Shown here piece after piece: positions 4,078 to 61,473 of a stretch of 64,000 nt of DNA. A model generated the notes under the pieces. The model made no database searches and was not told the DNA's origin. It was given only the letters and a program-made list of their open reading frames with translations. The position numbers and the translations under genes are program-made. Each line of letters opens with the position of its first letter. Within the stretch, counting starts at the first letter, position 1. This DNA comes from an uncultured Candidatus Babeliaceae bacterium (lineage in GTDB: Bacteria; Babelota; Babeliae; Babelales; Babelaceae). The stretch is taken from NCBI GenBank assembly GCA_963704655.1, contig OY969927.1:736001-800000 (forward strand), given 5' to 3'.

Positions 4078-4090
4078 AAAATTACCCCAA

Positions 4091-4151
4091 CACTTCGACT
4101 TCGCTCAGTGTGAGCGGCCGCTCGTGGTGAGCGTAGTCGAATCCATGGCGG
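4091..4151. repeat. Family A inverted doublet, intergenic
   Basis: cacttcgacttcgctcagtgtgagcgg + ccgctcgtggtgagcgtagtcgaatccatg. Confidence 0.92.
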
Positions 4152-8473: not shown

Positions 8474-8494
8474 AATAATTTTTACATTCCATGT

Positions 8495-8548
8495 GTCACC
8501 CTGAGCATGTCTCAGGGTCTTTTACAATTACAAAGAGATCCTGAAACA
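8495..8548. repeat. GTCA-headed REP-like palindrome plus truncated inverted partner (family C)
   Basis: gtcaccctgagcatgtctcagggtct ... agatcctgaaaca. Confidence 0.6.
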
Positions 8549-10923: not shown

Positions 10924-11043
10924 CGCTAATCCCTCGATCCAGCTTCCGACTACGCCGAGGCTTCGACGGACAGGCAGGATGCACTGAACTGGCCTGCCAT
11001 CTGTAGCTTGCCAAGCCGGAAGGCCTGGATAAGCGAAAGATGG
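10924..11043. repeat. Repeat cluster 3' of tRNA: family A copy interrupted by family B (10945-10974), plus a second family B copy (10993-11043)
   Basis: Reverse complement gtgcatcctg[cctgtccgtcgaagcctcggcgtagtcgga]agctggatcgagggattagcg; and cctgccatctgtagctt...aagcgaaagatgg. Confidence 0.85.
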
Positions 11044-22682: not shown

Positions 22683-22720
22683 GTATTTACGACCTAACTT
22701 TAAAGAACTTAATAATCCGC

Positions 22721-22786
22721 CCGCATGGATTCGACTACGCTCACCACGAGCGGACGCTCATCCTGAGCCTGTCGAAGGGTTAGCGG
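22721..22786. repeat. Family A inverted doublet, intergenic
   Basis: ccgcatggattcgactacgctcaccacgagcgg + cgctcatcctgagcctgtcgaagggttagcgg. Confidence 0.93.
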
Positions 22787-22867
22787 GTCAATGAAAGTCT
22801 GCTATATATCTAGTAAAGTTTACGCAAAAATTGTAAAACGATCAATCTATGGTAAAATTATATCATT

Positions 22868-23782: not shown

Positions 23783-24807
23783 AAAACCTGATTCAACAGA
23801 ACGCTCCACTGGCAGACAAAAACTGGTTTAAAACAGGCGGGCCTGCAGAGTTTTATGCAGAGCCACAAACACCACAAGAATTTGCTGCAGCTATTATATT
23901 CGCACGCGAACACAGTTTGCCTATTACATTATTAGGCGAAGGCGCTAACGTACTTATCAGCGATGCGGGAATTTCTGGGCTTGTTATTCGCCCCGCTTTA
24001 AAAGAAATTATATTCGAAACATGTTCAAACGCCGTGCACCCTGCCTGTCCGTCGAAGCCTTGGCGAAGTCGGAAGTGTTCACCGCAGGTGAATGTATCGA
24101 AGGGGCAGAATATCTGGGTTACAGCGCAGGCAGGCGTGAGTATGCATGAACTTATCGATGCTTGCTTAGCGCAAGGCGCATTAGGCTTAGAAGAATTTAG
24201 TGGGATACCCGGAACAGTTGGCGGGTCAGTTTTTATCAATATCCATTATTTTGAATTTTTATTAAGCAAGTTTATTACTCAAGCGACAGTTATTAACGCC
24301 ACAACCGGCGAGCTGCTTTCAGTTGACCATGCATGGTTTAATTTTAGTTATAACTATTCAATGTTACATGAAAATAATTACTATCTAGTAGATGCTACGT
24401 TTAAACTTAAACGTGCTGAATCGCCTTTAGATGTTGCGTTTGCGCAAGGGCGCAGAAAAGAGATTATTCGCCACAGAGCAGCTCGATACCCAAATGCGGG
24501 AACTTGTGGCAGTTTTTTTAGAAACTTTTATCCGCAAGAAGTTACGCTTGAAAGCTTAGGAAAAAAACTAATCTATGTTGCTTATTATTTAGATAAAATT
24601 GGTGTTAAAGGCGCACTTTCATGCGGCGGTGCAACGGTGTCTTACCAGCATGCAAATATGCTCGTTAACTCTGGCAATGCCTCCACTGCCGACTTAATAA
24701 CTCTTGCACGCACCATGCAAGAAAAAGTCCGTGATGCTTATGGCATTACGCCACAGCCGGAATGCAGATTATTAGGTTTTGAAAAATACCCATTACTATC
24801 CTATTAA
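23770..24807 (+). CDS. murB: UDP-N-acetylmuramate dehydrogenase with in-frame repeat insertion
   Basis: FKTGGPA, GEGANVL, GIPGTVGG, GSFFRN, HANMLVN. Confidence 0.96.
   Translation: MRSLENLIQQNAPLADKNWFKTGGPAEFYAEPQTPQEFAAAIIFAREHSLPITLLGEGANVLISDAGISGLVIRPALKEIIFETCSNAVHPACPSKPWRSRKCSPQVNVSKGQNIWVTAQAGVSMHELIDACLAQGALGLEEFSGIPGTVGGSVFINIHYFEFLLSKFITQATVINATTGELLSVDHAWFNFSYNYSMLHENNYYLVDATFKLKRAESPLDVAFAQGRRKEIIRHRAARYPNAGTCGSFFRNFYPQEVTLESLGKKLIYVAYYLDKIGVKGALSCGGATVSYQHANMLVNSGNASTADLITLARTMQEKVRDAYGITPQPECRLLGFEKYPLLSY
24031..24105 (+). repeat. Family A copy interrupted by family B (24044-24073), in frame in murB
   Basis: gccgtgcaccctg[cctgtccgtcgaagccttggcgaagtcgga]agtgttcaccgcaggtgaatgtatcgaagggg. 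Confidence 0.92.
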
Positions 24808-26309
24808 GCTTCATTAATTTCCTTAATAACAAACATATTAGCGTTATTAAGTTTTTGAAAAGCTTCATTTGCACTAGCATAATTCTCAGGATTTTTATCA
24901 GGATGAACTTTCAAAGACAATATCCTAAATGCTCTATTAACATCATCTATTGTTGCTTTATGAGAAACGCCCAAAATCTCATAAGGATTTTTAGTATTTA
25001 GGATCCGTGTTATCGCTTGATCTTGAGTTTCATTTTTTAATTCAGAACTCATAGAACTTTCAGCTTCAAATGATTTTTTATAAGCATCTTTTAACACATT
25101 CACGTCCCATATTTTGGCGACCTTGCCAAGAGACAAAGTAATTATTTTTTTATCTGAAGGTGAAAATTTTACAGACAAAACTTTATACTCACCGCCAAAT
25201 GGATTAAAGCTTGTCAGAGTCTTGTGAGTTTGTACATCTTGTATAGTAACCGTTTCATTTTCACCTACCAAGATAACCATATCACCATGATATGAAAATA
25301 TTGTCTTGCTTGAATCATAAGCTTCATGTCCAAGAATTTTATAAAGATTGCCTAAAGCTGTACCTATATTGCCATCCCAAACTCCGATAAAGCCATCAGG
25401 TGTGTAGGTAAGAATTTTAGTTCCATCTGCTGAAAAAGCTATAGTCGGTCTATCTTCTTCGGGATTACTTACTTCTTTTTCTTTAACAAGTGTGGCTATC
25501 TTTTGACCTGCCTCTACTGACCATAATACTATCGGGCCATAATACTTTTGCCCTGAAATGGTCTGCACAGCACTGGTGAGTAGTTTTATGCCATCGGGTG
25601 AAAAGTGCGCTATATTTACGTTTGGAAAGGTATGCAAACTGGTGCCGGTAGCAACATCCCATATTTTTGCAACGCTTTGTTTTTTTGCAACATCTTGTGC
25701 TACGGTAAGGAGCTTACTTGCATCAGAAGAAAATTCTATAACACTAACCGCTTTAGGCGTCGCAATTGCCGCCTGCTTTTTGCCTATAGAAGGCATAGCC
25801 CCTGAAGATGTTTCAGGCGCCTTAAGAGCCTCGTAAGCTTTAAGACTAAGTAAGCTTCCCCCTGTTGCAACATCCCAAATTTTAACTATTCCATCTTCTG
25901 CTCCTGTTGCAAGCTTTAGATCATCGTGAGAAAAACTTACTTTATTAATTTTTTTTGGATGAGCATTAAAAGTACTTATCATGCTACCAGTTCCGGTATC
26001 CCACAAAATAACTGTCCCATTTGAAGATCCAGTAACAATTTTTTTACCATCATGCGAAAATGCCGCAACCACAACAGGACTACTATGATCAAGCTTATAT
26101 ATAAGTTTGCCAGTTTGCGCATCAAAAAGATCTGCGCTGTTTCCCTCACCAGGGGTTAAAATTTGCTTTTCATCTGGGCTAAAAAATGCGAATAATATCA
26201 TAGCATTATTTGAAATTGTTACTACAGGTGAAATATCCTGCATCCCACAAAGCTGTTGAGCCATGCCCAGCAAAACAAGAATAAAAACATTAAGAATATT
26301 TTTTTTCAT
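24804..26309 (-). CDS. Signal peptide + WD40 repeats + C-terminal DnaJ domain
   Basis: Multiple FSxDG...KIWD repeats; NPYEILGV...HPDKN. Confidence 0.9.
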   Translation of the reverse strand: MKKNILNVFILVLLGMAQQLCGMQDISPVVTISNNAMILFAFFSPDEKQILTPGEGNSADLFDAQTGKLIYKLDHSSPVVVAAFSHDGKKIVTGSSNGTVILWDTGTGSMISTFNAHPKKINKVSFSHDDLKLATGAEDGIVKIWDVATGGSLLSLKAYEALKAPETSSGAMPSIGKKQAAIATPKAVSVIEFSSDASKLLTVAQDVAKKQSVAKIWDVATGTSLHTFPNVNIAHFSPDGIKLLTSAVQTISGQKYYGPIVLWSVEAGQKIATLVKEKEVSNPEEDRPTIAFSADGTKILTYTPDGFIGVWDGNIGTALGNLYKILGHEAYDSSKTIFSYHGDMVILVGENETVTIQDVQTHKTLTSFNPFGGEYKVLSVKFSPSDKKIITLSLGKVAKIWDVNVLKDAYKKSFEAESSMSSELKNETQDQAITRILNTKNPYEILGVSHKATIDDVNRAFRILSLKVHPDKNPENYASANEAFQKLNNANMFVIKEINEA

Positions 26310-28709: not shown

Positions 28710-31067
28710 TTACCACGTAAAGCGGGCTTCGACTTCACCACCAAAGTCACCACGCTCGTCGCGCATGCCACGAAGCGTTATTTCGTCAGTTGGCTTATAA
28801 GCAACTTCAATAAGTACGTCTTCACTTAAACTAAAGTTTTGTTGAATTAATGCACTTAAATTTTCATTTACTTCTATTGCAAGGGCTGCACGAAGACCGC
28901 CACGGCTTGTCTGGTCACTAAAACGGGGAACAATTTTTACATTTTGCAATGGCCCGAGCCAATTTTTAAATCCGTCAGATTCAGTGAACTCATCTGAAGA
29001 ACCAACGATGAGTTTTTCAACCATCCCCATAGAAGATAACGGCATCACCAACGATAGCGAACTATCTGGCGACCCACCAAATAAAAGGCCTATAATTTGT
29101 TCTTCTTGCAAATTCGGAGTTGACTGAAAGGAAATAACTGGGTTTTGAGCCGTGCCATCAACCGTTAATGTTATTGCATAATTTTTTATTACCGCAGTTG
29201 CACATAGCTCAATTGCCGGGTCGTCACGTTCATTATCAACAAAAAATATTTTTCCATATTGAATCTCAAGCGGCTTATAAGGAAAGTTTAATGTTCCTTG
29301 CAATAACTCAATGTGCCCATAGAGTTGCGGCTGCGCGATAGTACCAAGCACCTGCAATTTAACCTGTGCGCGCGCTTGTAAAAATGGAGTTTTTATTTCA
29401 ACGGGCTCATATGAATGTATCGTTACATCAAGGTCTGCTGTCTGCGCCAGTGGGTGACTTTCAAAAGGGTTAATGGTTGCAGCAACAATATCATTACCTA
29501 CGCCACCAGAAAATGGATTGTTTCGAATGTGACATTTTTTTATCGTACAAATACCTTGTACCTTTGATCTAGATTCTTTTTGGTATTCAAGAACACACGC
29601 ACCAGAAAGCTGTGCAAAAAAATCTTTTGCTCGGTTAATAAAAAAGTCCTGCATCATGATCGGCACATGCGCAGACTGCACGTTATTGTGCGCATCAAAA
29701 CCAAGCGTACTTATGCCACTTATTAATCTGCCACGGTCCGTCTGCAACGTCGTGTCACGTAACAAAAGATACGTTCTATCAGAAGCATATAATGCAGTAG
29801 TATGAAGCGAACGTAAAAAATTATAGGTGTAAGGAATCCGAACATGTAGCCCAGAAAGATCTAGTTCACTCTGCCAATATTTTGTAGTTCGCATGCCCTT
29901 TACAATAAAGGGTGCTTGGTACTGTAACAAATCACCATATGGAGATAGTAACTTGAGATACTCCTGTGGCACTATGTTCTTTTGCAAAAGGGAATAAAAA
30001 AAGTCTGTTGCGCCGCTTACTGTATAGCGACTATCATAATATATCTGTGCTTCTAGTTTATGCTTATTATCATCATGAATAGTTACCTTTACATGGTCAG
30101 GCTGTGAATCATAATCTAAATTAAATAATAACGATTGTAGCGTAATAGATGCTGTGCCCTGAAGATCTGTCGCTACTGATAGCGTGCCGGCAGAAGTTAT
30201 TGCATTAAACTGATACGCATTTTTTGGTGCGATAGTTTTTGAAAGGCTAAGTTCAGTTTTTTGATCATCGTCCTTAAATGAAACTGATACATTATTATCT
30301 TGCACATCAGCACAAATTTTACCCGGGCACCACGAATCTTCTAAAGGATTACGTAACATAATGGTGCCATGTATATCTGTAAACGCCTTTTTTGTGCCCA
30401 TATCAGTAACTCTTTTTATCAATAGCCTTAGGTCCCGAGCAAGAAATTGATTCTTATAAGCGATATGATCTTGGGTAATAGTAAGACCGATATGTTGGTG
30501 ATTATCAATAAGATCTATAGCGCCGCTTACATTACATTCAAGGGCCGTGTCCGCATTAACATGAAGCGTAATTTTAGCATGCGGTATATGCAACTTTTCA
30601 GGAATAATAGGTATCACCATAACCTTTTCACGAATAAATGCCTGAACATGATCCACAATGGCAACCTTACCATCAACAACCTGCGTATCGATTTGCATAT
30701 CACCACAGGTAATAGTAAGAACAACCAGCTTCTCTAAAAAGAGTTTTGCCCAATTAACCGTTACAGTTATACTATCGCTTGTCCAAAACCAATCACGCCC
30801 TTTTTCAGGAAGCACCGTTACGTCAGTTAAAAAGATACTACCATGGAGTATATCTAGACGATCGACTTGCGCATTAAAATCGCAGTCAAAAGCTTTACTT
30901 GTGCCTTGGCAAATAGCTGTTTCAAGATATTCGATTGTTACCGGGTCATGCATAACGATAAACAAAGATGCAAGCACTGTTAAACATATTGCACTTATAA
31001 AAGCAATCAAAAACTGCACAAAAAATATACTATATTGTACCAATAACTTTATTAATAACTTTGCCAT
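28710..31067 (-). CDS. TamB/AsmA-like protein
   Basis: N-terminal anchor, beta-rich body, TamB-like C-terminus (GT..QP.LYG.IEL, STPNL.EEQI..LLFG). Confidence 0.8.
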   Translation of the reverse strand: MAKLLIKLLVQYSIFFVQFLIAFISAICLTVLASLFIVMHDPVTIEYLETAICQGTSKAFDCDFNAQVDRLDILHGSIFLTDVTVLPEKGRDWFWTSDSITVTVNWAKLFLEKLVVLTITCGDMQIDTQVVDGKVAIVDHVQAFIREKVMVIPIIPEKLHIPHAKITLHVNADTALECNVSGAIDLIDNHQHIGLTITQDHIAYKNQFLARDLRLLIKRVTDMGTKKAFTDIHGTIMLRNPLEDSWCPGKICADVQDNNVSVSFKDDDQKTELSLSKTIAPKNAYQFNAITSAGTLSVATDLQGTASITLQSLLFNLDYDSQPDHVKVTIHDDNKHKLEAQIYYDSRYTVSGATDFFYSLLQKNIVPQEYLKLLSPYGDLLQYQAPFIVKGMRTTKYWQSELDLSGLHVRIPYTYNFLRSLHTTALYASDRTYLLLRDTTLQTDRGRLISGISTLGFDAHNNVQSAHVPIMMQDFFINRAKDFFAQLSGACVLEYQKESRSKVQGICTIKKCHIRNNPFSGGVGNDIVAATINPFESHPLAQTADLDVTIHSYEPVEIKTPFLQARAQVKLQVLGTIAQPQLYGHIELLQGTLNFPYKPLEIQYGKIFFVDNERDDPAIELCATAVIKNYAITLTVDGTAQNPVISFQSTPNLQEEQIIGLLFGGSPDSSLSLVMPLSSMGMVEKLIVGSSDEFTESDGFKNWLGPLQNVKIVPRFSDQTSRGGLRAALAIEVNENLSALIQQNFSLSEDVLIEVAYKPTDEITLRGMRDERGDFGGEVEARFTW

Positions 31068-31552
31068 ACACTATTACGATAACGGTAAACACGAATATAA
31101 GAAAATGCTGAAACGGGGGTAGTTAATGCGTACTGTTCATATCCGTCTGTTATATACAGTGTTCCAGACTGTAACGTGCCATCAGGATGCGCACCTATCT
31201 TTTTATCTACAAAAGTAACCATTTGTGTAACAAGCTTTTGTGGTGAAGATGGCGGCCCATATACATCAGGTAATACCCCAAATCTAAAACCATCTTGCAA
31301 AGCATAACGACTGCCGTCATATATTAATGCTGAATTTACTTCATCAATAGTAATTTTTTGCTCTTTTTTTAAGCACGTTGCACGTGTTGCCGCAGTACGC
31401 AGCAACAGGCTCAACACAGCAACATCAGTAGCAAAAGAAGTGCCCTTAACGACATTATAACTTATAAATCCGATTGTAGAACAAACAAGTATTAACGTTA
31501 TTACCAGCATCAACTCAAACAGCATGAACCCTTGTCTGGCCATTCGAGCCAT
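31052..31552 (-). CDS. Type IV pilin / T2SS pseudopilin-like protein
   Basis: MARMARQG|FMLFELMLVI prepilin motif. Its ATG overlaps the upstream stop (TAATG). Confidence 0.85.
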   Translation of the reverse strand: MARMARQGFMLFELMLVITLILVCSTIGFISYNVVKGTSFATDVAVLSLLLRTAATRATCLKKEQKITIDEVNSALIYDGSRYALQDGFRFGVLPDVYGPPSSPQKLVTQMVTFVDKKIGAHPDGTLQSGTLYITDGYEQYALTTPVSAFSYIRVYRYRNSVWQSY

Positions 31553-32044
31553 TATTCGATTCCCTCTTGCGAAACTATGAAATCTGCATCGCAGCCGCTC
31601 GTGGTGAGCGTAGTCGAATCCATGCGGCAAGATTCTTCATTTTTGAATCCACCCCAACCATTACGTATTAATATCTCTTTTTTCTGACGCGTCCAGCGCT
31701 TTATTTTATGCTCTGCCACAAATGCCTCATCGCGTGTTTGAAATAACTCAAAATATTTTAATGTAACGGGTAGTCTATTTAATGTGTAACCCTTATACTT
31801 GCCTTCATTATGTTCGCATACCCTTTGTTCTAAATTATCTGTATGCCCAATATAATAAGAACCATCAGCACATTGAACGATATAAAAATAAAAACCTTCA
31901 TTCATGATTTACCAAATTTTTTTAGGCCGCATGGATTCGACTACGCTCACCACGAGCGGCCTGTTAAAGTGATTTTATTATAGATAAATTACAATTAATA
32001 ATTTTCTGTCTTGGTAGAAAAACATTATTCGATTCCCTCTTGCG
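31550..32044. mobile_element. GIY-YIG cassette with 35-bp inverted repeats (31594-31628, 31926-31960) and 22-bp direct repeats (31550-31571, 32023-32044)
   Basis: IR gccgctcgtggtgagcgtagtcgaatccatgcggc, exact inverse at the other side; DR cattattcgattccctcttgcg twice. Mobility is inferred. Confidence 0.8.
31552..31905 (-). CDS. Small GIY-YIG nuclease (UPF0213/YhbQ-like)
   Basis: YFYIVQCADGSYYIGHT...R..EH...YT..R.P......E......A...E..IK.W.R.KK. Confidence 0.93.
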   Translation of the reverse strand: MNEGFYFYIVQCADGSYYIGHTDNLEQRVCEHNEGKYKGYTLNRLPVTLKYFELFQTRDEAFVAEHKIKRWTRQKKEILIRNGWGGFKNEESCRMDSTTLTTSGCDADFIVSQEGIE

Positions 32045-33734
32045 TAGTAGCAACAGAAAGAACTTCTTCAATAGTAGTAATACCCTTTTTAATTTTCTCG
32101 ATACCATCATGCACCAACAATGTCATACCATCTTTTAAAGCGGCATCTTGTATGAGTGCAGTATCAGCGCGTTCAATAGTTAAACGTGCAATAGCATTAG
32201 TCATAACCATAATTTCAAATAATGGGATTCGGCCACTGTACCCTGTGTTTAAGCATTCATGACAACCGACCGGATTATAGAAAGTTATCTTACCCGCTTC
32301 TTCTGGAGTTATCCCAATACGTTTAAGCACTTGCGGTGTCGGTACATATTTTTGTTTACATGACGGGCACAATTTTCTTACAAGCCGTTGTGCTAAAATA
32401 GCAACAACCGATGACGCGATTAAAAAGGGCTCGATACCCATATCTATAAGTCGGGTTATACTTGCAGCGGAACTATTGGTATGTAACGTTGTTAATACTA
32501 AATGGCCCGTTAATGATGCCTGAATAGCAATTTGCGCCGTCTCTTGGTCACGCGTTTCACCGATCATGACAATGTCAGGATCTTGTCGCAAAATTGAGCG
32601 CAGTGCCGCGGCAAAAGTAAGGCCAATTTTATCCTGCACCTGCACTTGCCCGATGCCTGCCATCTGATATTCAACCGGATCTTCAACGGTTACAATATTA
32701 ACATCAGGACTATTTAATTTATTTAAAACAGCATACAAAGTAGAAGTTTTACCAGAACCGGTAGGCCCTGTTACCAAGATAATACCATTTGGTTGTTCGA
32801 TAGACTGCATTAAAATTCTATAATCTCGGTCGCTTAAGCCAAGTTCATTAAGCTGCTTAAATGTTTTTGCTTTATCCAAAAGACGCATTACAATACGCTC
32901 GCCATACACAGTGGGCAGCACCGAAACACGAATATCAATTGCTCTATCGGCGATTTTAATCTGTATACGGCCATCTTGAGGATGGCGCTTTTCGGCAATA
33001 TTAAGATTTGCCATAATTTTTATACGTGATGCAATTGCGGCTTGCGCACGCTTTGGCGGTGTAATGCTTGGGTATAAAATCCCGTCAATGCGGTAACGAA
33101 CACGCAACTCTTTTTCAAAGGGTTCGATATGAATATCAGAAGCTTCCTGCTTTACGCCTTGGTACAAAATATGGTTCACCAATTTAATAATCGGCGCTTC
33201 ACTTGCCATTCCAAGAATATCTTCTTCATTAATTGCAGCAAAATCTAAAGCTGAAGTAAACTCTTTTTCCTCTTCTAGACCCTCGATAACCTCTTTAGAA
33301 CTTTCATAGGGATAAAATTTATTAATAGCTTCAACAATTATTGCTTGCGGCGCAACAGCAACATCATAGGGAATCTTAAGTAATAAACTGAGTTCATCAA
33401 GTGGTTGAAAATTAAAGGGGTTTGCACACAAAAGCGTAACAGCGTTATCTGTGCCCATTTTGATAGGCATAATAGCCTGCTCACGTAAAAACTTAAGGGG
33501 AATTTGTGAAATAACATCTGGGTCCGTCATCTGCTCGGTTACTTCAGCGACGTAGGGGCACTCAAATTTTTCTGCCAAAGCTTGAGCTAAATGCTGTTCA
33601 CTGACACCAAAATCTCGTGAGCACTTAAAAAAGTTTTGGGATTTTTCATCACAGGCAGCCGAAAGCGCAGCTGATTTTTCTTTATCAAGAAAGTTTTTAT
33701 CTAAAAGAATCTGAACAATACTTTTTTTTATCAT
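32025..33734 (-). CDS. gspE: GspE/PilB secretion or pilus ATPase
   Basis: ASDIHIEP, PQDGR, GPTGSGKT, LRQDPD, CxxC motifs. Confidence 0.93.
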   Translation of the reverse strand: MIKKSIVQILLDKNFLDKEKSAALSAACDEKSQNFFKCSRDFGVSEQHLAQALAEKFECPYVAEVTEQMTDPDVISQIPLKFLREQAIMPIKMGTDNAVTLLCANPFNFQPLDELSLLLKIPYDVAVAPQAIIVEAINKFYPYESSKEVIEGLEEEKEFTSALDFAAINEEDILGMASEAPIIKLVNHILYQGVKQEASDIHIEPFEKELRVRYRIDGILYPSITPPKRAQAAIASRIKIMANLNIAEKRHPQDGRIQIKIADRAIDIRVSVLPTVYGERIVMRLLDKAKTFKQLNELGLSDRDYRILMQSIEQPNGIILVTGPTGSGKTSTLYAVLNKLNSPDVNIVTVEDPVEYQMAGIGQVQVQDKIGLTFAAALRSILRQDPDIVMIGETRDQETAQIAIQASLTGHLVLTTLHTNSSAASITRLIDMGIEPFLIASSVVAILAQRLVRKLCPSCKQKYVPTPQVLKRIGITPEEAGKITFYNPVGCHECLNTGYSGRIPLFEIMVMTNAIARLTIERADTALIQDAALKDGMTLLVHDGIEKIKKGITTIEEVLSVATTQEGIE

Positions 33735-46135: not shown

Positions 46136-48697
46136 ATGGAAAAAAAGTACGATCATCAGATTAATGAACCTAGAATAAAAGCCTTTTGGCACGAAGATGC
46201 CACCTACACCCTAGCACCTGAACAACTAGATGATCGACCTCTTTTTAGTATAGACACTCCCCCGCCTACCGTTTCAGGCTCACTACATATTGGCCATATA
46301 TTTTCCTATACGCATACCGATCTAATCGCGCGCTATAAGCGCATGAGCGGATACGCCGTATTCTATCCATTTGGCTTTGATGATAACGGGTTGCCCACAG
46401 AGCGCTTTGTTGAAAAAAAGAAAAGTATTACGGCTTTTAGCGTGGGCCGTTCAGAATTTATTAAACTCTGTCTTGCAGAAACGGTTGAAGTTGAAAAAAA
46501 ATTCCAAGATTTGTGGCAGACTATCGGCCTTTCAATCGATTGGAACCATTGGTATTCAACCATCGACGCACGAACACGCAAAATCTCACAAGAATCGTTT
46601 ATCGATTTATATAGTAAAAAATATGTCTATCGCAAGCAAGAACCGGCACTTTATTGCACCACTTGTTACACTTCTGTAGCTCAAGCAGAACTTGATGATG
46701 CAGAAAAAGAAACATTCATGACCACTATCGCCTTTACCGGCGCCGATGGTTCGGTGTTGCCTATAGCAACAACACGTCCAGAATTTTTAGGCGCATGCCT
46801 GGCAGTTTTATATAACCCAGAAGATGGCCGTTATAAGCATTTAAAAGGCACCGTTGCAAGCGTGCCACTTTATGGAACTACCGTTCCGTTATTGCCCGAA
46901 GAAACGGTTAAAATAGATAAAGGCACTGGGCTTGTTATGTGTTGCTCTTTTGGAGACACTACGGATATTGAATGGATCAAAAAACTTAATCTCACCATTA
47001 AGCCAATTTTGCAAAAAGATGGCCGCTTTCAGGCTGATTTAGAGTATATTGGTGGCCTAAAAGTTAAACCTGCCCGTGAAAAAATTCTTGCTGAACTTGC
47101 AACACAAAATTTGATTATTGAACAAAAGAAGCTTGTTCATAATGTCAATATTCATGAACGCTGCAAAAATGAAATAGAGTTTTTAAGTTTACCGCAGTGG
47201 TTTATCGATATTAAATCACATAAAGAAGATTTTCTTGCTATGGGCCGCCAAGTTATGTGGCACCCAGAATATATGAAATCACGATATGACAACTGGGTAG
47301 AGCATATCAATTGGGACTGGTGCATTTCGCGTCAGCGCTTTTTTGGAATTCCGTTTCCTTGCTGGCACTGCACAACCTGCGGTACCGTTATTTTTGCAGA
47401 AGAATCACAATTACCGATAGATCCACAAGAAACACCTTACCATAAACCATGCCCGCAATGTGGCAGCACAGAAATTGTACCTGATATGGATGTTATGGAC
47501 ACGTGGAACACGTCGTCATTAACGCCACAGATTGCTGCAGAGATGTTTAAAAAGGCGTACCCAAAAACCCATAAAACGTTATTGCCGATGAGCATGCGCC
47601 CGCAGGCACATGATATTATCCGCACGTGGGCATTTGATACCATTGTTAAATCGTGGATGCGCGACAAACATATTCCATGGCACGATATTGTTATCTCTGG
47701 CCATGTGCAAACAAATGATAAACAAAAGATCTCTAAATCGCAGGGCAATTCACCACTTGAACCAGAAAACTTGCTTAAAACGTACCCTGCCGATGTAATT
47801 CGTTACTGGACCGCCGGTGCTCAGTTAGGAACAGACACCGCGTTTTCTGAAAACCAGTTTAAAATTGGCCAACGATTAATTGTTAAACTCTGGAACGCCT
47901 GTTTATTTATTAAAGAACATGGTACCCCGCTAACCCTTCGACAAGCTCAGGATGAGCGGGTCTTTAGTGCTGAGCATTCGTCGAAGCATCAGGATGAGCG
48001 AGGGGAGGCCGCTCGTGGTGAGCGAAGTCGAATCCATTTGAGCGGACTTGTAATCCCGCAGGACACCATTAATAAATGGATCTTGCACCAAGCGACAGAA
48101 ACATTTGGTGCCTATAAAAATGCATTTGATGATTACCATTTTCATAAAGCGCTTGAAAGTGTCGAAAAGTTCTTTTGGAACGATTTTTGTGATAACTATC
48201 TTGAACTGGTTAAAGATCAATTTTTCAACCCGGCAAACTATAGCCCAGAACTTATAGCAGAAACACAGGCCGTTTTATATAAAGTCGGTTTTGAATTGAT
48301 ACAATGGTATGCGCCGTTCTTGCCGTATATCACCGAAACCATTTATCAAGAATTATATAAAGAAAACTACAAAGTAACATCGCTGCACCAAACAACGTAT
48401 AGTTCAGAACATGACCATTATGATTATGTTCATGAAGTTAAAGTTGTTGAGCTCTTACTGCTGGCAGTACAGCACGTACGTAAAATTAAAACTGATGCTG
48501 CCGTATCGCTTAAAACAGATATCAAGCTTTTAACTATCCACTGCACCGCGGAGCAGGAAAAACAGCTTGCAACGGTTGAAAAAATATTAGCCGGTGTTGC
48601 ACGCGCACAAGAGATACGTTATACAACAGTAAAACTTGAACAAGAAGTTTCACTTATTGATAATCAGGGCATTTACTCAATGGTAATTGATTTATGA
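46136..48697 (+). CDS. valS: Valine-tRNA ligase (short, archaeal-like type) with in-frame repeat insertion
   Basis: DTPPPTVSGSLHIGH, DWCISRQR, PQAHDIIRTW, KISKS. Confidence 0.97.
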   Translation: MEKKYDHQINEPRIKAFWHEDATYTLAPEQLDDRPLFSIDTPPPTVSGSLHIGHIFSYTHTDLIARYKRMSGYAVFYPFGFDDNGLPTERFVEKKKSITAFSVGRSEFIKLCLAETVEVEKKFQDLWQTIGLSIDWNHWYSTIDARTRKISQESFIDLYSKKYVYRKQEPALYCTTCYTSVAQAELDDAEKETFMTTIAFTGADGSVLPIATTRPEFLGACLAVLYNPEDGRYKHLKGTVASVPLYGTTVPLLPEETVKIDKGTGLVMCCSFGDTTDIEWIKKLNLTIKPILQKDGRFQADLEYIGGLKVKPAREKILAELATQNLIIEQKKLVHNVNIHERCKNEIEFLSLPQWFIDIKSHKEDFLAMGRQVMWHPEYMKSRYDNWVEHINWDWCISRQRFFGIPFPCWHCTTCGTVIFAEESQLPIDPQETPYHKPCPQCGSTEIVPDMDVMDTWNTSSLTPQIAAEMFKKAYPKTHKTLLPMSMRPQAHDIIRTWAFDTIVKSWMRDKHIPWHDIVISGHVQTNDKQKISKSQGNSPLEPENLLKTYPADVIRYWTAGAQLGTDTAFSENQFKIGQRLIVKLWNACLFIKEHGTPLTLRQAQDERVFSAEHSSKHQDERGEAARGERSRIHLSGLVIPQDTINKWILHQATETFGAYKNAFDDYHFHKALESVEKFFWNDFCDNYLELVKDQFFNPANYSPELIAETQAVLYKVGFELIQWYAPFLPYITETIYQELYKENYKVTSLHQTTYSSEHDHYDYVHEVKVVELLLLAVQHVRKIKTDAAVSLKTDIKLLTIHCTAEQEKQLATVEKILAGVARAQEIRYTTVKLEQEVSLIDNQGIYSMVIDL
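47927..48045. repeat. Family A composite (three units) in frame in valS
   Basis: ccgctaacccttcgacaagctcaggatgagcgg..tgctgagcattcgtcgaagcatcaggatgagcg..gccgctcgtggtgagcgaagtcgaatccat. Confidence 0.93.
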
Positions 48698-52036: not shown

Positions 52037-53344
52037 TCAAATATGCTGGATAATATCGCGCTGAGGGACTTTAACCTCAATACCTGTGGTCATATTTTTA
52101 ATAGTTGCCATGCCAGAGGCCTGTTCATCGGCCCCAATAAGAATAGCCCATTTTGCGCCCATTTTATCAGCAGCTTTAAACATACTTTTAATAGATGATT
52201 TATCTAAAATAATATCGGCACAGATATGTTCGGCATGAAGCATTTGCACAATCTGCAACCCTAAATTTCTTTGTTCAGCTGTTAAGGGAATAATAACTGT
52301 AAGCGCCGGTTGAGTATCATGACCAACTAAACTTTTTTGCGATTCAAGCAACAACTGTAACCGTTCAAGGCCAACAGCGGCACCGATAGACGGGTAGTCA
52401 TGTTTAGCCCCAATTTGCGTTGCAAGCGAATCATAACGGCCACCGCCACAGAAGGTGTTTTGCGCGCCCAAGCCATCAGAAGAAACAGAAACAAACTCAA
52501 AGACCGTTTTATTGTAATAGTCTAATCCGCGAACCAACGTCGGCTTAACAGAATAGGTTATAGAAAGTTCTTCAAGAATATTTTTTAGCTGTTGCCATTC
52601 AAGTGCAGATTCTTGTGCCATGGTATCAATAATAGTAGGCGCTGTTGCAAAGAGTTTGTGGCAGCTTTCCTGCTTGCAATCAAAAACACGCATAATATTA
52701 GTGTTCATGCGATGCTTACACAAATCACATAATTCTGTAATATGCTTTTCAAGAAACTTTTTAAGAACTTTTTGATATGCTGCACGGTCTTCACGCGTGC
52801 CAAGGTAATTGATTAAAAGAGCATAACCTTCAATTTTTAAAACATTCATAAAAAGGGCATCGAGCATCGCGATAAAAAGGGCATCCTGCAAAATTGAATC
52901 AGAGCCGATTATCTCCATGCTCATTTGATGAAACTGGCGATAGCGCCCTTTTTGTGGGCGTTCATGCCTAAATGCGGGCCCAACAGAAAAAACTTTCCAT
53001 GGCGTATCTTGAATGCCGGCATTAATAAATGCGCGCATAATACTTGCAGTAAGTTCGGGGCGAAGACACATTTTATCTGAATCGGCGCTAGCTGAATCGC
53101 CCCCCCGCTCATCCTGAGCTTGTCGAAGGGTTAGCGCAACGTCTGAAAGTACCCGATACATCTCCTTGCTGACAACGTCAGTTTCAAGGCCCAATGACCG
53201 CTTAAAAAGTTCAAGTGGCTCGATTAAGGGAGTGGATATTTCATGAAAATTATAATCCAAAAGATGTTTTTTTGCCTTTTGGATTATCCAATTATATAAA
53301 GAAAGATCAAGAAAATCTTGTGTACCCTTAATACGCGTAATCAT
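52037..53344 (-). CDS. hisS: Histidine-tRNA ligase with in-frame repeat insertion
   Basis: KGTQD, KEMY, LRPE.TA, FRHERPQKGRYRQF, RGLDYY, GGGRYD. Confidence 0.98.
   Translation of the reverse strand: MITRIKGTQDFLDLSLYNWIIQKAKKHLLDYNFHEISTPLIEPLELFKRSLGLETDVVSKEMYRVLSDVALTLRQAQDERGGDSASADSDKMCLRPELTASIMRAFINAGIQDTPWKVFSVGPAFRHERPQKGRYRQFHQMSMEIIGSDSILQDALFIAMLDALFMNVLKIEGYALLINYLGTREDRAAYQKVLKKFLEKHITELCDLCKHRMNTNIMRVFDCKQESCHKLFATAPTIIDTMAQESALEWQQLKNILEELSITYSVKPTLVRGLDYYNKTVFEFVSVSSDGLGAQNTFCGGGRYDSLATQIGAKHDYPSIGAAVGLERLQLLLESQKSLVGHDTQPALTVIIPLTAEQRNLGLQIVQMLHAEHICADIILDKSSIKSMFKAADKMGAKWAILIGADEQASGMATIKNMTTGIEVKVPQRDIIQHI
53105..53136 (+). repeat. Family A copy in frame in hisS
   Basis: ccgctcatcctgagcttgtcgaagggttagcg, exact reverse complement of valS 47928-47959. 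Confidence 0.95.
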
Positions 53345-53495: not shown

Positions 53496-55088
53496 ATGAA
53501 TTTCAAACAGTTAGGTTCTATAAGCCTACTTGCACTGACGGCGACCAGCAATATTTCAAGCTGGTATCAAGCAGTTTCAAGTAAAACTTATTATAGTAAT
53601 ATTCAATTGTGGGAAATTGGTAAACCAACCAAAGAAATATTCTTTAATACCGAACGCATGCAAGAACGTGAAGACGGCTGGTGCGGTGGATTTGAAATCG
53701 CAGGATATGGCGGTCAATCAACCAACTCAAGCAAACTTAATTCATACTTCATGCCTTATGGTAAATGTTCTTTAAATGTCATTGAAGGTATTCCATTAGG
53801 AACATCTCCTTGGGTTAACCCAGCAGATGGCACCACCAACCGCGATATCGAAGCACGTAACTTTAACATCGAAACAGTTAACGGCGCAAATGGGGAAGAT
53901 GGACAACAGTACATGGGTACCATCACCTTTAACCCTAAACAAACCATTGCCGGTGTCGGCTTCTGCTTTAGACAATCATTCTGGAAGGACCACCGCGGCG
54001 TACCAACAATCTGGGGCGAAATTTCATTCCCGGTTCAGTATGTAAAAAACGAAATGAACCTGTGTGAAAATGTCACCCAAACAGGCGGCGGCGCATCAGA
54101 CACTGTCGGTCTTGATAACTCACTTCACGTGGGCACCATGCAGGCTGCATTTGCACAAACAAACTGGCTCTATGGCAAAGTCGACAATAGCAAAGATCTC
54201 AGCACATGGGGCGTTGCAGATGTTGAATTACGCGTAGGCTATAACTCTATCAACACAGACTGCTGCGATTTGAATGCCTATCTTGGTGTGGTAATTCCAA
54301 GCGGAACAAAAATCGACCAATGCAATGCTGCATATATGTTTAACTCGGTAATTGGTAATAACCACCACGTTGGTATCTTATACGGTACACACTTTGGTTA
54401 TGAACTGTATGGCAAAGGCGATCATATGCTCCGCATGGAACTTGATATGTCAAGCAAATACCTTTTCTCTAACCACCAATGGCGTTCATTTGATTTAGTT
54501 GGTCAAGAATGGAGCCGTTACCTTGAAGTGTACACAGATGTAAACCAAGCAACTGCTGCTGATTCTGCAGTTCCACCACTTACTGTTAATAGTGGTACAT
54601 CTGGTATCAACGTCTTTACTCGCCGCTTACGTGTTTCACCACGTTTTGCAACCAATATCAATACCGCACTTAACTATTCATACAGATCAGTCGATTTTGA
54701 ATTTGGTTACAACTTATTCACCCGTCAAGCAGAAAAAGTTGAGTTCCCACGCAACTGTTGTGTCGATTTCCCACTTACTGTAGCGGTAAAAGATATTAAT
54801 GGTACTGGTGGCACAAATATTGCACGTACTATTAAAAATGATTTTGGCGGATCAGTTACAACTCTTGCAAACTATGCACAAAACGTTATTCAATTACCTG
54901 AATTGAATCTTGATTCTGCTGCGCACCCTGCATTAATCACCAACACTATTTATGGTGGCGTTGATTACAATACAGAATGCTGGACGGTCCCAATGTTCTT
55001 TGGTGTTGCTGGCATGTACGAATTTTGTAGCATGAACAGCTCGATTGACCGTTGGAACGTGTTAGGCAAATTCGGCATTACTTATTAA
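53496..55088 (+). CDS. Exported paralog-family protein (putative outer-membrane beta-barrel)
   Basis: Signal peptide, EARNFNI, NWLYGKVD, GNNHH, ends GKFGITY. Confidence 0.8.
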   Translation: MNFKQLGSISLLALTATSNISSWYQAVSSKTYYSNIQLWEIGKPTKEIFFNTERMQEREDGWCGGFEIAGYGGQSTNSSKLNSYFMPYGKCSLNVIEGIPLGTSPWVNPADGTTNRDIEARNFNIETVNGANGEDGQQYMGTITFNPKQTIAGVGFCFRQSFWKDHRGVPTIWGEISFPVQYVKNEMNLCENVTQTGGGASDTVGLDNSLHVGTMQAAFAQTNWLYGKVDNSKDLSTWGVADVELRVGYNSINTDCCDLNAYLGVVIPSGTKIDQCNAAYMFNSVIGNNHHVGILYGTHFGYELYGKGDHMLRMELDMSSKYLFSNHQWRSFDLVGQEWSRYLEVYTDVNQATAADSAVPPLTVNSGTSGINVFTRRLRVSPRFATNINTALNYSYRSVDFEFGYNLFTRQAEKVEFPRNCCVDFPLTVAVKDINGTGGTNIARTIKNDFGGSVTTLANYAQNVIQLPELNLDSAAHPALITNTIYGGVDYNTECWTVPMFFGVAGMYEFCSMNSSIDRWNVLGKFGITY

Positions 55089-55120
55089 TGAGTATTTTTA
55101 AAATACAAAGGAATTAATTT

Positions 55121-56974
55121 ATGAAATCGATAAAAAGTTTATTAACCTTGTGGTGCTGCTTAATTGCAGCACCATTTGCACTCGATGCAAAGGTTCTGAC
55201 TACAGCGCAAGCTCAGGCAAACCTTGATACCGCAATTGCGGCATTTAAAAAAGATCAAACAAACCCAGCGCTTGCACAACAAGTACTTAACAGTTACGCA
55301 CCTATTCAAGGCGCTCAAATAAAAGCTAATGCTGATGCAAAACTTAAAAAAGAGCTGGGCAAAACTATTAAACAAGTAGAGCAAATAGTCACAGGAGCAA
55401 AAGCTGCTGAGATTAAAAAATCTACACCTGGAATAAGCACCTCTGATGCCGCAGCTGAAGCTGAGGTACAAGAAATTATGGTACTAGCAAAAAACCTTCT
55501 TGATAACTATGATGATCAAGGAATAAATTCTGCAACTTTAAATGATATTAATGAATATTATGCTGCATTAACCGAACTCAGCAAACGAATTGATGGCTCT
55601 CCTTACAAAGCTAAGCTTGCAGAAACTCAAAATAAACTTAATGCACAACTTTCTAAGGTAACAATAAGAATAGCAACACTTTCAGTGCCTGCGCCTACAG
55701 CAGCGCCTGCAATACCTGCAGGAGCGCCAGTAGCACCTCCAGCAGCACCTGCAGCAATACCCGCAGCACCTCCTGCACCTCCAGTACCAGCAGCAGCAGC
55801 TCCAGGAAAAGGCAAGTCTGATTATCAAATTGAACTTGCAAGAATAAAACCATTAGTTAAGGCTGCATATGATAAAGCTCTAGATGTAATCAAAAAATAT
55901 GAAACGGCTAACGCCTCCAACTTTAATCAAGGCTTAGGCTCAGTTTCAACTACACGATGGGCAACTCAGCTTGAAAAAGAAAATGCATTACAACTTATTG
56001 CTGAAGTCAAAAAACTTATCTCAGAAATAACTGCATTAGTTAATAAAGTTGACACGAAGTTCAACGGAAACTTATACGATATGATGCATACTAGCGATAT
56101 TTACATTGACTGCATCGTAAAAGCTGATAGAGACAAAGAAGCTGAGCAATGGAAAGAACAAAAAGCTGATTTACTCAGCTTTATTGCTAGGTACAATTCA
56201 GATGTTGCTGGAGTTGAAAAACTGGAAACCGCAATAAATGCATATACACCAAAAGGTACCATTCAGCGTCCTGAGATAATTAGCAAATACACCGAGCCAG
56301 CTCTTAAAAAAGTAGAAGATATAAACTCGTTATACAACCAAGTTTCCAAACTTAATTTTGTTACAAAATACTCAGTTACCGCATATGCTTCAAAAGACCA
56401 AACAGAAGAGGCTCTGAAAAAAATAGCGCAGATACGTAAGCTCAATGATGAAATACCTGTAATATTAGAACCTCTAGACAAAGCTAATGCTCATAAACCA
56501 TTTAATCAATTCTTAACAGGTGATTACTTCCGTAGTCTTATCACGGCAGATGAAAATCTACGTCCTGATGAATATAAACAACAAGAAAAAGAGCTCCAAG
56601 ATAAACTAAACACCTACGAAAAAGCAATGAAAGCACTTGATGGTTTAGAGAAAGATGCTAACCAACGCTTGCAAAATATTGCTGCTGATGAAGCTGCCAA
56701 AAAAGGCGCTCCAGTAGCACCCCCAGCACCTCCAGTAGCAACAGCACCAGCAGCGGGCAAAGTTACCGTTAAAGGCATTGAGGTCAGTGATGAAATGTTC
56801 AAAAGCGATGATGCTGCAGAAGTTTCACGTAAATTAGGTGAGCTAGCTGATGAAGATATAAAAGCGCATAAAGGACAAATTATAAAAGCACTAACCGATA
56901 AAATTAGCGCAACAAGTGACCAAGTTCAAAAAGAACTCATTCAGAAAGAATTAGCTGAAATTGAAAAAATATAG
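55121..56974 (+). CDS. Exported helical protein with Pro/Ala-rich linkers
   Basis: Signal peptide; two GAPVAPP-containing tracts. Confidence 0.8.
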   Translation: MKSIKSLLTLWCCLIAAPFALDAKVLTTAQAQANLDTAIAAFKKDQTNPALAQQVLNSYAPIQGAQIKANADAKLKKELGKTIKQVEQIVTGAKAAEIKKSTPGISTSDAAAEAEVQEIMVLAKNLLDNYDDQGINSATLNDINEYYAALTELSKRIDGSPYKAKLAETQNKLNAQLSKVTIRIATLSVPAPTAAPAIPAGAPVAPPAAPAAIPAAPPAPPVPAAAAPGKGKSDYQIELARIKPLVKAAYDKALDVIKKYETANASNFNQGLGSVSTTRWATQLEKENALQLIAEVKKLISEITALVNKVDTKFNGNLYDMMHTSDIYIDCIVKADRDKEAEQWKEQKADLLSFIARYNSDVAGVEKLETAINAYTPKGTIQRPEIISKYTEPALKKVEDINSLYNQVSKLNFVTKYSVTAYASKDQTEEALKKIAQIRKLNDEIPVILEPLDKANAHKPFNQFLTGDYFRSLITADENLRPDEYKQQEKELQDKLNTYEKAMKALDGLEKDANQRLQNIAADEAAKKGAPVAPPAPPVATAPAAGKVTVKGIEVSDEMFKSDDAAEVSRKLGELADEDIKAHKGQIIKALTDKISATSDQVQKELIQKELAEIEKI

Positions 56975-56999
56975 ATTCCAGTGACTTAAGGAAAAAAAA

Positions 57000-57443
57000 A
57001 TGAACTATAAATTATTTTTTTTATGCTTCCTCTTTTTCAGAGCATACTCAGATTATACCGCTCTTCAGCTTTTCTTGCTTGCAACAAATCCTAATGATGC
57101 TGCTGCAATTTATGCAAATATTAAACCTGAAGAGCTCAGCAAAAGTCGCCCTGGGAAATCGAAAGCGGCTACTCCCGAAGTTCAGGCAGCTATTCAAAAA
57201 AAACCTGCTGGCGGCGGCGCTGCTCCGGCTGATTGCTTAACAAAAGAAGATCTTAAAGCCATTGAAGCAAAATATGGCACGCTGCCTACTAATGTTAACA
57301 CTCCTGCTTTAGCAAAAGCTGCATTAGTTGAAATCGCCAAACCAGGAAATACGCTTGGCCAATTATTAGGAGAAATCTGCCAAAATTCAAAAGACGCAGA
57401 TGATGTTAGAGAGGCAATAGGTAAAATTACACCCAAGGCGTAA
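57000..57443 (+). CDS. Hypothetical exported protein
   Basis: 147-aa ORF with RBS and hydrophobic N-terminus. Confidence 0.7.
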   Translation: MNYKLFFLCFLFFRAYSDYTALQLFLLATNPNDAAAIYANIKPEELSKSRPGKSKAATPEVQAAIQKKPAGGGAAPADCLTKEDLKAIEAKYGTLPTNVNTPALAKAALVEIAKPGNTLGQLLGEICQNSKDADDVREAIGKITPKA

Positions 57444-57458
57444 ACAACAATTTTAACC

Positions 57459-57493
57459 GGCGAGGGCTCAGGCAACTGGGCTCTCGCCTTTTT
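57459..57493 (+). terminator. Intrinsic terminator
   Basis: ggcgagggctcag-gcaa-ctgggctctcgcc-ttttt. Confidence 0.85.
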
Positions 57494-57524
57494 GTAGAAA
57501 AATTTATACATAAGGGGAAAAGAG

Positions 57525-58382
57525 ATGTTAAAAGAGTTTATGGCGCTGAGTCTTTTTACTCATGGGATATTAGAACAGTTAAGATTAGAAAAGTTAAAGA
57601 CACCTGCAGCGGTTCCTACAACAACAGCATCAGCAGTTGTTTCTGTAGAGTCCATCAAGCAAAAAATTAATGCGGGGCAAATCTTAAATAGTGATGAAAT
57701 TTATGATTTATTAGATTTCATTGATGAAGCGGGAAAATCACGACAAGAATTGGTAGAAAATCTTAGCATATTGGAAAAGCTTGAAGCACTTCTTCTTAAA
57801 AACAAGATTGACACCTATAATAAATCAATAACTGGAATTAAAAATGGTATACGTGCTGATATGCAAATTCTTGAAAGAAAAGAAGGCCTACAAGGCTTAG
57901 CCAAAAAGCCCGTTAGCGAGCCTCTGACAAAAGAGGAAATAGAAAAAGAGCTGAGCTCGATGAAGCCAGAAGAGCGTGCTGCATTATTAAAAGAACTTGG
58001 TATATCAGAAGAAGAAGCTAGTGCAACAAAAGTTCAACCTGCACCTGGACTAGAAGAACTTTTAAAACCTGCGCAAGCCACACCAGGCGTTGTAACTCGC
58101 ACACAGCCACAACAAAAAATCGATCTATCAACTAAAACCGATGCTGATTTACGTAAAATCCAAAATGATCTGTTAGATGGCCTTAAAGGGCAAGACAAAG
58201 ACGCATTTATTGAAAATAATCGTGAAATGGCAATAGCTTTGCGTAAAGTATATTCAGAAAAGGCAAAAAAAGTTAAAGAGGCGTTAAAAACTTCTGAGGG
58301 AGAAAAGCAAATAAAGCTTACAGTTCAGAAAAATAAATTGGAAGAAACAATACGCGATATAAGTCAAGGCTTCAAATTATAA
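57525..58382 (+). CDS. Hypothetical Lys/Glu-rich helical protein
   Basis: 285-aa ORF, RBS aagggg. Confidence 0.75.
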   Translation: MLKEFMALSLFTHGILEQLRLEKLKTPAAVPTTTASAVVSVESIKQKINAGQILNSDEIYDLLDFIDEAGKSRQELVENLSILEKLEALLLKNKIDTYNKSITGIKNGIRADMQILERKEGLQGLAKKPVSEPLTKEEIEKELSSMKPEERAALLKELGISEEEASATKVQPAPGLEELLKPAQATPGVVTRTQPQQKIDLSTKTDADLRKIQNDLLDGLKGQDKDAFIENNREMAIALRKVYSEKAKKVKEALKTSEGEKQIKLTVQKNKLEETIRDISQGFKL

Positions 58383-58406
58383 TATAACGTGCCTTTAATT
58401 ACTCAA

Positions 58407-58595
58407 TCCTTCGATACATTTTGCTTGCGCAAAACACTCAGGATGCACGGATTAAAGGCCCGCTCACCCAGAGTACTTCGATGCAGTTCATCCTGAGTAA
58501 AATAGTGCGTAAACGCACCAATCGAAGGGCTCAGTATAAACTTCGTCGAGTCGCCTGTCAGCCGCCGCTCATCCTGAGCCTGTCGAAGGGTTGCG
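58407..58595. repeat. Largest family A cluster (about four units, partly nested), intergenic
   Basis: tccttcgatac..actcaggatgcacgg; ccgctcacccagag..[ttcatcctgag..tcgaaggg]..gtcgag; gccgctcatcctgagcctgtcgaaggg. Confidence 0.88.
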
Positions 58596-58727
58596 CAGGC
58601 TGGAAAGGGTTGGGGATATATTGGTATTATAAGTATAAATTAGGGAGTTTTGACTAGAGGGCCATTCAGTTTCTTTAAAAGCTAGTAAAAAGTGTAACCA
58701 TATGTTCTAAAAAAAAAGGAAGAATTT

Positions 58728-60230: not shown

Positions 60231-60258
60231 AAAATCATACCCACAATTTAAAACCAAT

Positions 60259-60287
60259 GGGCTCGAGGATAACTCGGGCCCTTTTTT
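60259..60287 (+). terminator. Intrinsic terminator
   Basis: gggctcgag-gataa-ctcgggccc-tttttt. Confidence 0.85.
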
Positions 60288-60367
60288 AATACTTATTTTT
60301 AACGTACCCACACCCGATTCTCAGTAAGCACTTGTTTTTTATGTAAAGTCATTCTAAACTTCCGCTT

Positions 60368-61439: not shown

Positions 61440-61473
61440 GTGTATAACCAGCATCAAATCAATTTAGGGTAAC

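Follow-up and report, generated by a model that had tools for sequence, protein, structure and literature searches.

A GIY-YIG nuclease gene inserted with inverted hairpin repeats next to a gspE-like gene in a Babeliaceae bacterium: a possible sister of the Ssn/SRM system

In REP and REPIN systems, the gene for a RAYT, which is a transposase of the HUH/Y1 type, is described as bracketed by repeats thought to be its substrate, and gene-less doublets of the repeat are also found. A further group of short palindromes, REPs with a terminal CGTC tag, was reported by Di Nocera et al. (2013; PMC3733652) to have no dedicated transposase. These REPs are mostly extragenic and occur singly, as dimers or in clusters, and sometimes within ORFs (PMC3733652). 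More recently, Chenal et al. (2025; PMC11893778) demonstrated site-specific cleavage of ssDNA by the Ssn family (cd10448) of GIY-YIG nucleases, single-domain proteins of approximately 90–100 aa whose genes lie between oriented hairpin repeats that are also dispersed in the genome. Each Ssn homolog has a repeat variant of its own, and presence of the gene goes with repeat abundance; NTS-ssnA-NTS is likened there to the IS200/IS605 and REP systems, and that the repeat-ssnA-repeat unit is or has been mobile is offered as a hypothesis only (PMC11893778). The locus described here resembles all three groups in the layout and dispersal of its repeats.

The DNA analysed, referred to as the window, is a stretch of 64,000 nucleotides from the genome of an uncultured member of the Babeliaceae (G000; 1.30 Mb, 96 % complete). 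The features of the nuclease locus are listed below.

31052–31552, minus strand: host gene 3′ of the insertion, pseudopilin-like, 166 aa; weak NCBIfam pilin matches below cut-off; abuts gspE in congeners.
31550–31571, minus strand: downstream copy of a 22-bp direct repeat, identical to 32023–32044; single copy in congeners.
31552–31905, minus strand: GIY-YIG nuclease ORF, 117 aa; core at approximately 31636–31905 (90 aa), with a tail running through the arm and the direct repeat.
31572–31593, no strand: 22-bp spacer from direct repeat to arm, unique in the genome (next-best match, 13 bp).
31594–31628, plus strand: repeat arm 3′ of the nuclease core, a CGCTC-tagged imperfect hairpin with its 5′ end outward.
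31926–31960, minus strand: repeat arm 5′ of the nuclease start codon, the exact inverse of 31594–31628.
31961–32022, no strand: AT-rich spacer of 62 bp, unique in the genome; promoter matches not above chance.
32023–32044, minus strand: upstream copy of the 22-bp direct repeat; forms the 3′ terminus, stop codon included, of the gspE-like ATPase gene.
32025–33734, minus strand: host gene 5′ of the insertion, GspE/PilB-type ATPase (TIGR02533 above cut-off, PF00437).

A sequence-only reading of the window had described a 117-aa GIY-YIG ORF with its nuclease core between inverted 35-bp sequences, and this was confirmed, the two arms being exact reverse complements of one another, 297 nt apart. Since the outer ends, 31550–31571 and 32023–32044, form an exact 22-bp direct repeat, the insert is 473 bp long. 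The downstream copy holds a purine-rich stretch and the ATG of the pseudopilin gene as well as the final codons of the nuclease ORF with its stop. Both congeners searched (2/2) have an empty gspE/pilin junction, with a single copy of the sequence and an overlap between the gspE stop and the pilin ATG. The gspE 3′ region was found in 24 of the 25 family members searched, and a GIY-YIG gene was present at the junction in none of the 24. The 473-bp cassette has been inserted here, with 22 bp duplicated in such a way that the end of gspE and the start of the pilin gene are both kept. A contig of sequencing run X2, approximately 88 % alike over 32023–32111, has an alignment that starts exactly where the direct repeat does, its 152 preceding letters being left unplaced; this is possibly an empty site in a relative.

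The arms sit 22 and 62 bp inside the boundaries of the insertion. Neither spacer has a source elsewhere in the genome, and a promoter scan of the 62-bp spacer returned 2 sites against 3.0 expected. Unlike an IS or a MITE, which has inverted repeats at its ends and a target duplication of fixed length, the cassette shows neither property. No transposase or integrase family was found among the 59 ORFs of the window compared with Pfam (short alternative-frame ORFs were left out), as had been claimed. Elsewhere in the window, paralogous ORFs of ~510–530 aa without a Pfam match and a Pro/Ala-rich ORF of 617 aa occupy 53496–63741, and a WD40 beta-propeller ORF (24804–26309; Pfam WD40 matches) ends in what we take to be a C-terminal J-domain motif.

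PF01541 is the sole domain of the 117-aa ORF (E 6e-17, residues 5–76). As the final ~27 residues are encoded by the right arm and the direct repeat, the nuclease proper comprises only ~90 residues. Residues Y8, Y18, G20, R28, H32, Y40 and E65 of the core are conserved in an alignment of 107 rows; Y18 was part of the pattern used in the locus search, whereas R28, H32 and E65 lay outside the pattern. The focal clade is like Ssn in that the protein is small and single-domain and the catalytic Tyr, Tyr and Glu are present, E65 being equated with SsnA E64 by position. With dN/dS values of 0.04–0.34 in 11 pairs, the catalytic residues are intact and under purifying selection in the clade.

The predicted model of the core has a pLDDT of 91.5, and searches of solved structures by sequence and by fold placed the UPF0213 (YazA/YhbQ) proteins 1YWL and 1ZG2 at the top and Slx1 next. 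Identities are 29–48 % to nine YazA/YhbQ-type proteins and 31–40 % to the Ssn family, and the UPF0213 profile outscored the Ssn-type profile in 107/107 cases (profile scores 89.7 for UPF0213 vs 58.6 for Ssn). In a tree, the Ssn-type rows stood alone on one side of a branch with support of 100 and a length of 3.1, Ssn being represented there by SRM-flanked genes, including one from A. lipoferum 4B, whose genome was among those that served to define SRM, with SsnA itself outside the set. These were quick trees from which four fragments were left out; they joined the focal clade to Ssn with support of 97, and an alternative tree joining it to the housekeeping UPF0213 proteins was not rejected (p-AU 0.70) and had the higher likelihood. 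An Atlas search with the nuclease returned GIY-YIG clusters only, and a DNA search of E. coli genomes returned nothing useful.

The repeat has the consensus CG[CT]TC-N4-TGAG-loop-CGAA and then the complement of the stem; TGAG and CGAA are invariant, loops are 3–44 nt long, and the stem has a fixed two-base mismatch (TC to GA). Its core, TGAGC-N3-4-GTCGAA, occurs 65 times in the genome (0, 0 and 2 times in three shuffles), and a broader pattern finds 170 units in 131 loci against 11–14 in shuffles. Like the CGTC REPs, the repeat is dispersed and for the most part extragenic: 31 of the 131 loci are inside ORFs of at least 120 aa, which make up 85 % of the genome. The three bases 5′ of TGAG pair with the three 3′ of CGAA at all three positions in 189 of 318 distinct units, the shuffle baseline for the same 318 having a mean of 51 and a maximum of 66, and the stem variants include TCC/GGA, TGG/CCA, GGC/GCC and CAC/GTG. 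Because folding of single units with ViennaRNA was no better than for shuffles (z −1.05 to +0.52, 6/6 units), support for the hairpin rests on this co-variation of the stem.

The published repeats differ in form. CGTC REPs have stems of 8–9 bp and loops of 4–5 bp (PMC3733652), whereas the repeat examined here has an extra tag base, the two-base mismatch and the longer range of loops, and so lacks the combination of a terminal CGTC, TGTC or CCTC tag with a fully paired 8–9-bp stem by which those REPs are recognized. The tag of the Ssn repeat is HGTC rather than CG[CT]TC, and its stem is not broken by TC-to-GA. Two repeat types are found in G000 that differ both in the tag and in the TC-to-GA of the 3′ arm, and the two differences are linked (47 GA-type, 4 perfect-type, 0 and 0 crossed). 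The gene-less copies and relatives in the window include the following.

2458–2525, no strand: gene-less back-to-back doublet.
4084–4151, no strand: gene-less back-to-back doublet; the copy near 4117 shares 31 bp with the cassette arm.
8492–8524, plus strand: perfect-stem, TGTC-tagged relative, the type that brackets a truncated Ssn-like gene in G000.
22719–22787, no strand: gene-less back-to-back doublet; 33 bp shared exactly with the arm at 22721–22753.
47926–48042, no strand: three-unit cluster, in frame in a class I tRNA-synthetase ORF (46136–48697), presumably ValRS.

The broader pattern finds 20 units in 13 clusters in the window, in line with the roughly 14 loci that the sequence-only reading had counted. 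The gene-less copies that it placed at 22721–22753 and 4118–4146 are also real, with 33 and 31 bp shared exactly; a third, at 48008–48037, is present but has one internal mismatch to the arm, and its longest exact stretch is 17 bp. One repeat unit (53104–53135) lies inside a histidyl-tRNA-synthetase ORF. A second GC-rich palindromic family, seen as an inverted pair at 10943–10984 and 24034–24075, is often nested in or beside the main repeat.

Among the ten PF01541 matches in G000 are UvrC, five genes of the focal clade (one broken), one truncated Ssn-like gene and three genes of another type adjacent to tRNA genes. All five focal-clade genes (5/5) are flanked on either side by the repeat, in a variant particular to each gene, and no inverted pair flanks UvrC or the three tRNA-adjacent matches. 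The latter lie directly behind tRNA-Arg or tRNA-Glu (G000 near 231546, 1291165 and 1292088; L001:1249–1740, L008:1367–1746, and L010). The truncated Ssn-like gene (G000 303638–303784; L009) lies between copies of the perfect-stem TGTC-tagged repeat, a form that the published SRM pattern does not detect, and three true SRM hairpins in G000 are all away from GIY-YIG genes. In contrast to YazA/YhbQ-type genes, which have a conserved housekeeping context (methyltransferase-yazA-rsmI) and a flanking repeat at 0/9 loci, the five G000 copies have unrelated neighbours. The clade gene was found in 4/20 genomes of the family and neighbours are not shared among copies. A RAYT is described as a single-copy, mostly vertically inherited transposase; the enzyme here is, by comparison, a GIY-YIG protein that is multi-copy and patchy.

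To see how general the pairing is, 80 homolog loci were taken from GTDB (Dependentiae, Sphingomonadales, Chloroflexota, Myxococcota, Burkholderiales and others), 76 of them with full flanks. An inverted flank match scoring at least 14 was present at 49/76 of these loci and at 1/76 when shuffled. The repeat motif, written after the flanks had been seen, points inward on both sides at 55/75 GTDB loci and is found on at least one side at 73/75, compared with 3/70 windows 1.2 kb away and with 22 and 27 of 75 in the opposite orientation. Two class-level sets of loci had the motif on both sides at 15/26 and 32/57, and on either side at 46/57 in the second. The arms are often identical within a locus and different between loci. 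The SRM pattern was absent from the flanks of focal-clade genes in both sets searched (0/76 and 0/57 loci) and from the vicinity of every GIY-YIG gene in G000; in the positive control, locus L042, it was found twice on each side. From 150 proteins gathered without DNA patterns, 78 contained repeat-derived peptide 6-mers against 0 in the reversed control.

Gene presence and repeat number were compared over 151 genomes of the class, which are related, so that kinship inflates any test, and which overlap with the GTDB locus set. At least four repeats were found in 45/50 genomes with the gene and in 21/101 without it, the median counts being 38.5 and 0, and 20 of the 21 genomes with at least 50 repeats carry the gene. 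The exceptions are 15/101 genomes without a detected gene that have at least 10 repeats and 5/50 with the gene that have fewer than four. None of the computable observations that the sequence-only reading held would count against it (close homologs without flanking repeats or in housekeeping synteny, repeat-rich relatives without the gene) holds in strong form, the repeat-rich genomes without a detected gene notwithstanding. The pairing of gene and repeat is real and general, with an inward orientation and a multi-copy, patchy distribution. At L027, L036, L059 and L061, inverted arms of 93–185 bp surround the gene, in some cases running past the repeat into the flank, a pattern suggestive of copying by fold-back or template switching.

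Direct repeats of host sequence lying outside the hairpin repeats were found at six focal-clade and two Ssn-type loci among 128 (control 0/101), and at 9/57 further loci of the class (control 0/120) after removal of two duplicate loci and one short locus. These cases were sorted by hand from 25 and 18 flagged loci, 17 and 9 being dropped as copies of the repeat itself. A screen with heavier masking (7/107), which hid known cases, was superseded by the 128-locus screen. Gene-less clusters had a flanking duplication in 6/242 cases (control 0/272), five of the six from G000; a looser gene-less pattern that took in flanks (1/301 vs 1/600) was superseded by this tightened pattern. Hence, no duplication is detectable at most cassettes and at ~97 % of gene-less clusters. 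In the focal clade the duplications are 16–85 bp long and often cover gene ends, starts or promoter-like stretches. Lengths that vary over this range led us to reject a target-site duplication of fixed length. The grpE and prfA sites are empty in both congeners, and a single gene-less unit in G000 (192740–192772; L257) immediately follows the prfA stop codon, and the gene end is duplicated there exactly over 22 bp. Tandem arrays of the repeat with its flank at L270, L268, L287 and L305 point to recurrent events at a single site; the one at L270 includes three versions of a gene-end-like stretch.

Where the duplicated sequence is coding, 14/19 differences between the copies are synonymous against ~20 % expected (5/5, 4/4, 1/1, 1/4, 2/3, 1/1 and 0/1 per case, the frames of the last three being read by hand), and at grpE the displaced copy retains codons common to the congeners. 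Simple decay after duplication was rejected on the ground that the differences are mostly synonymous, and this bias suggests instead that two alleles were joined by recombination rather than that a transposase duplicated its target. One copy lies 4–11 nt from the 5′ end of the unit in 11/18 cases (read by hand, with no control), and the cut made by SsnA relative to its motif is near this same distance (PMC11893778). The focal cassette departs from this pattern: no second allele can be seen between its two identical direct repeats, and their distances from the arms, 22 and 62 bp, exceed the short gap.

Our preferred reading is that the cassette belongs to a sister system of Ssn/SRM in which a strand-specific ssDNA nuclease makes a cut and host recombination then spreads the repeats and the cassette; we give this a probability of about 0.5. 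The register of the repeat sets GA opposite GA on one strand only. Tandem G·A pairs are stable in DNA, and the T-GA-G/C-GA-A register may form them on one strand and so mark that strand. Comparison with SsnA makes it likely that only one strand of the repeat is bound, in ssDNA form, and that the cut falls a few nucleotides to its 5′ side. That the enzyme is not a transposase, and that its cut together with host recombination spreads the repeat or cassette, is drawn from the scars, and here we see the balance as roughly even. The cut would leave a free end in donor ssDNA, the donor's other end would pair with a homologous host gene by way of host recombination, and the cut end would be joined off-register. 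In homology-facilitated illegitimate recombination, likewise, one end is homologous and the other is joined off-register (PMC3240628). The repeat or the whole cassette would thereby bring in the end of a donor gene, displacing the resident gene end as a direct repeat of 16–85 bp, and selection would retain events that spare gene ends, ribosome-binding sites and promoters. DprA and a ComEC-like ORF are present in G000, and no match to the IS110 family was found there. Free-standing GIY-YIG mobile ORFs of fungal mitochondria also bring a replacement gene end. They resemble the present case in that a nuclease cassette lies by a gene end and the resident end is displaced as a diverged duplicate; they differ in that they are homing endonucleases whose presumed target is a single site in dsDNA, whereas here there are many unrelated sites and the likely substrate is a dispersed ssDNA hairpin.

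Other readings of the same observations were weighed. The gene may be domesticated or a passenger: cutting of the repeat would be mainly a host function, such as limiting the integration of incoming ssDNA, the repeats would owe their spread to something else, whether a tyrosine or phage recombinase or host repair, and the gene would move when lying between two of them. This would fit the purifying selection, the two tyrosine recombinases present in G000, the repeat-rich genomes without a detected gene, and the reports that SsnA lowers transformation by NTS-bearing DNA and that dRS3 has been described as a phage recombinase target (PMC11893778). Five copies at unrelated sites of a 1.3-Mb genome, one of them broken, look selfish, as do the patchy presence in the family and the unshared neighbours, which are not those of a housekeeping gene. 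The repeat type also tracks the nuclease type within one genome, and we consider this explanation unlikely.

Two-allele duplications of variable length are also what would be predicted if a nicked cassette were freed as a small circle with a piece of host gene and re-entered another allele by a single crossover. In E. coli conjugation, most of the homology-facilitated illegitimate events that were sought proved to be single-crossover circle duplications (PMC3240628). A circle would account for the distance of both ends from the arms at the focal locus, and the 14 back-to-back doublets of G000, their 5′ ends joined, resemble circle junctions. Yet no circle or junction read was seen among the contigs of the sequencing runs, which were sparse and did not span the cassette, and duplications of 16–30 bp are short for RecA. 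GIY-YIG enzymes hydrolyse and are not known to ligate. We regard the circle as improbable.

The sequence-only reading had proposed a candidate autonomous element similar to REP/RAYT, in which the GIY-YIG enzyme may bind or nick the hairpin and spread it and the gene-less doublets would be non-autonomous forms. Taken as a transposon, its protein would be a transposase acting on the inverted arms as ends. That the focal cassette did insert, that arms are often identical within and different between loci, and that no Y1 transposase is found in the genome (0 PF01797 matches in G000) all speak for this. However, the arms are not the ends of the insertion, lying inside it on both sides, the duplications vary in length and often join two alleles, and the G000 paralogs are 48–61 % identical to the focal protein, with no near-identical recent copies. 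The two-unit gene-less clusters of G000 are mostly oriented opposite to the cassette (14 back-to-back and only 2 inward), which does not support a reading of these doublets as deletion derivatives of it; inward gene-less pairs with short spacers, favouring the transposase, are nonetheless common in 400-kb samples of relatives (12 in G139 and 9 in G113). The GIY-YIG fold is not known to carry out strand transfer, and a transposase seems improbable. Finally, the duplications could be assembly chimeras of co-occurring strains, most of the genomes being metagenome-assembled and mixed strains being able to give two-allele repeats, but this is very improbable given that duplications occur in many separate assemblies, that a contig of run X4 (whose source may be the window's own) covers 31948–32202 across the spacer/direct-repeat junction with no differences, and that the link between gene and repeat is independent of the duplications.

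A REP-like layout with a GIY-YIG enzyme is not new: layout, ssDNA cleavage and the analogy to REP and IS200 were all published in 2025 for Ssn (PMC11893778). The UPF0213-like clade with its repeat is, judged from sequence comparison, a different variant of that layout. The words ‘duplication’, ‘direct repeat’, ‘UPF0213’ and ‘cd10456’ do not occur in the main text of the Ssn paper, whose Fig. 5a may include the focal clade, and three repeat words are absent from the text of its 14 supplements (PMC11893778). Similarly, ‘GIY’ is absent from the text, figures apart, of Di Nocera et al. (PMC3733652). In the literature searched, outside which most subscription papers fall, PMC11893778 was the only paper on GIY-YIG genes with hairpin repeats, and no description of the focal clade, its repeat or the duplications was found there.

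Extended to its full scope, the preferred reading becomes a tentative proposal, one that we hold to be less likely than not: a widespread minimal selfish element, with neither transposase nor integrase, whose 90-residue GIY-YIG enzyme reads a tandem-G·A hairpin on one strand and makes its cut immediately 5′ of that hairpin. By way of host recombination the cut would drive the cassette and gene-less repeats into new chromosomes, with gene ends replaced and duplications of two alleles left behind. In combination with Ssn/SRM, this would then be the missing mobilising enzyme of the CGTC-type REP superfamily. Which agent spreads the CGTC-type REPs was left open by Di Nocera et al. (2013; PMC3733652), and the pair of filled and empty sites described here, with the scars at related loci, separates transposition from recombination-assisted spread and makes the question testable. 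The present analysis adds an insertion with a 22-bp duplication, empty sites in congeners, and the co-occurrence of gene and repeat over 151 genomes. If the enzyme cuts as predicted, the site-specific ssDNA nucleases would comprise a second clade, one with another target, that is present in several phyla and was missed by the published SRM pattern.
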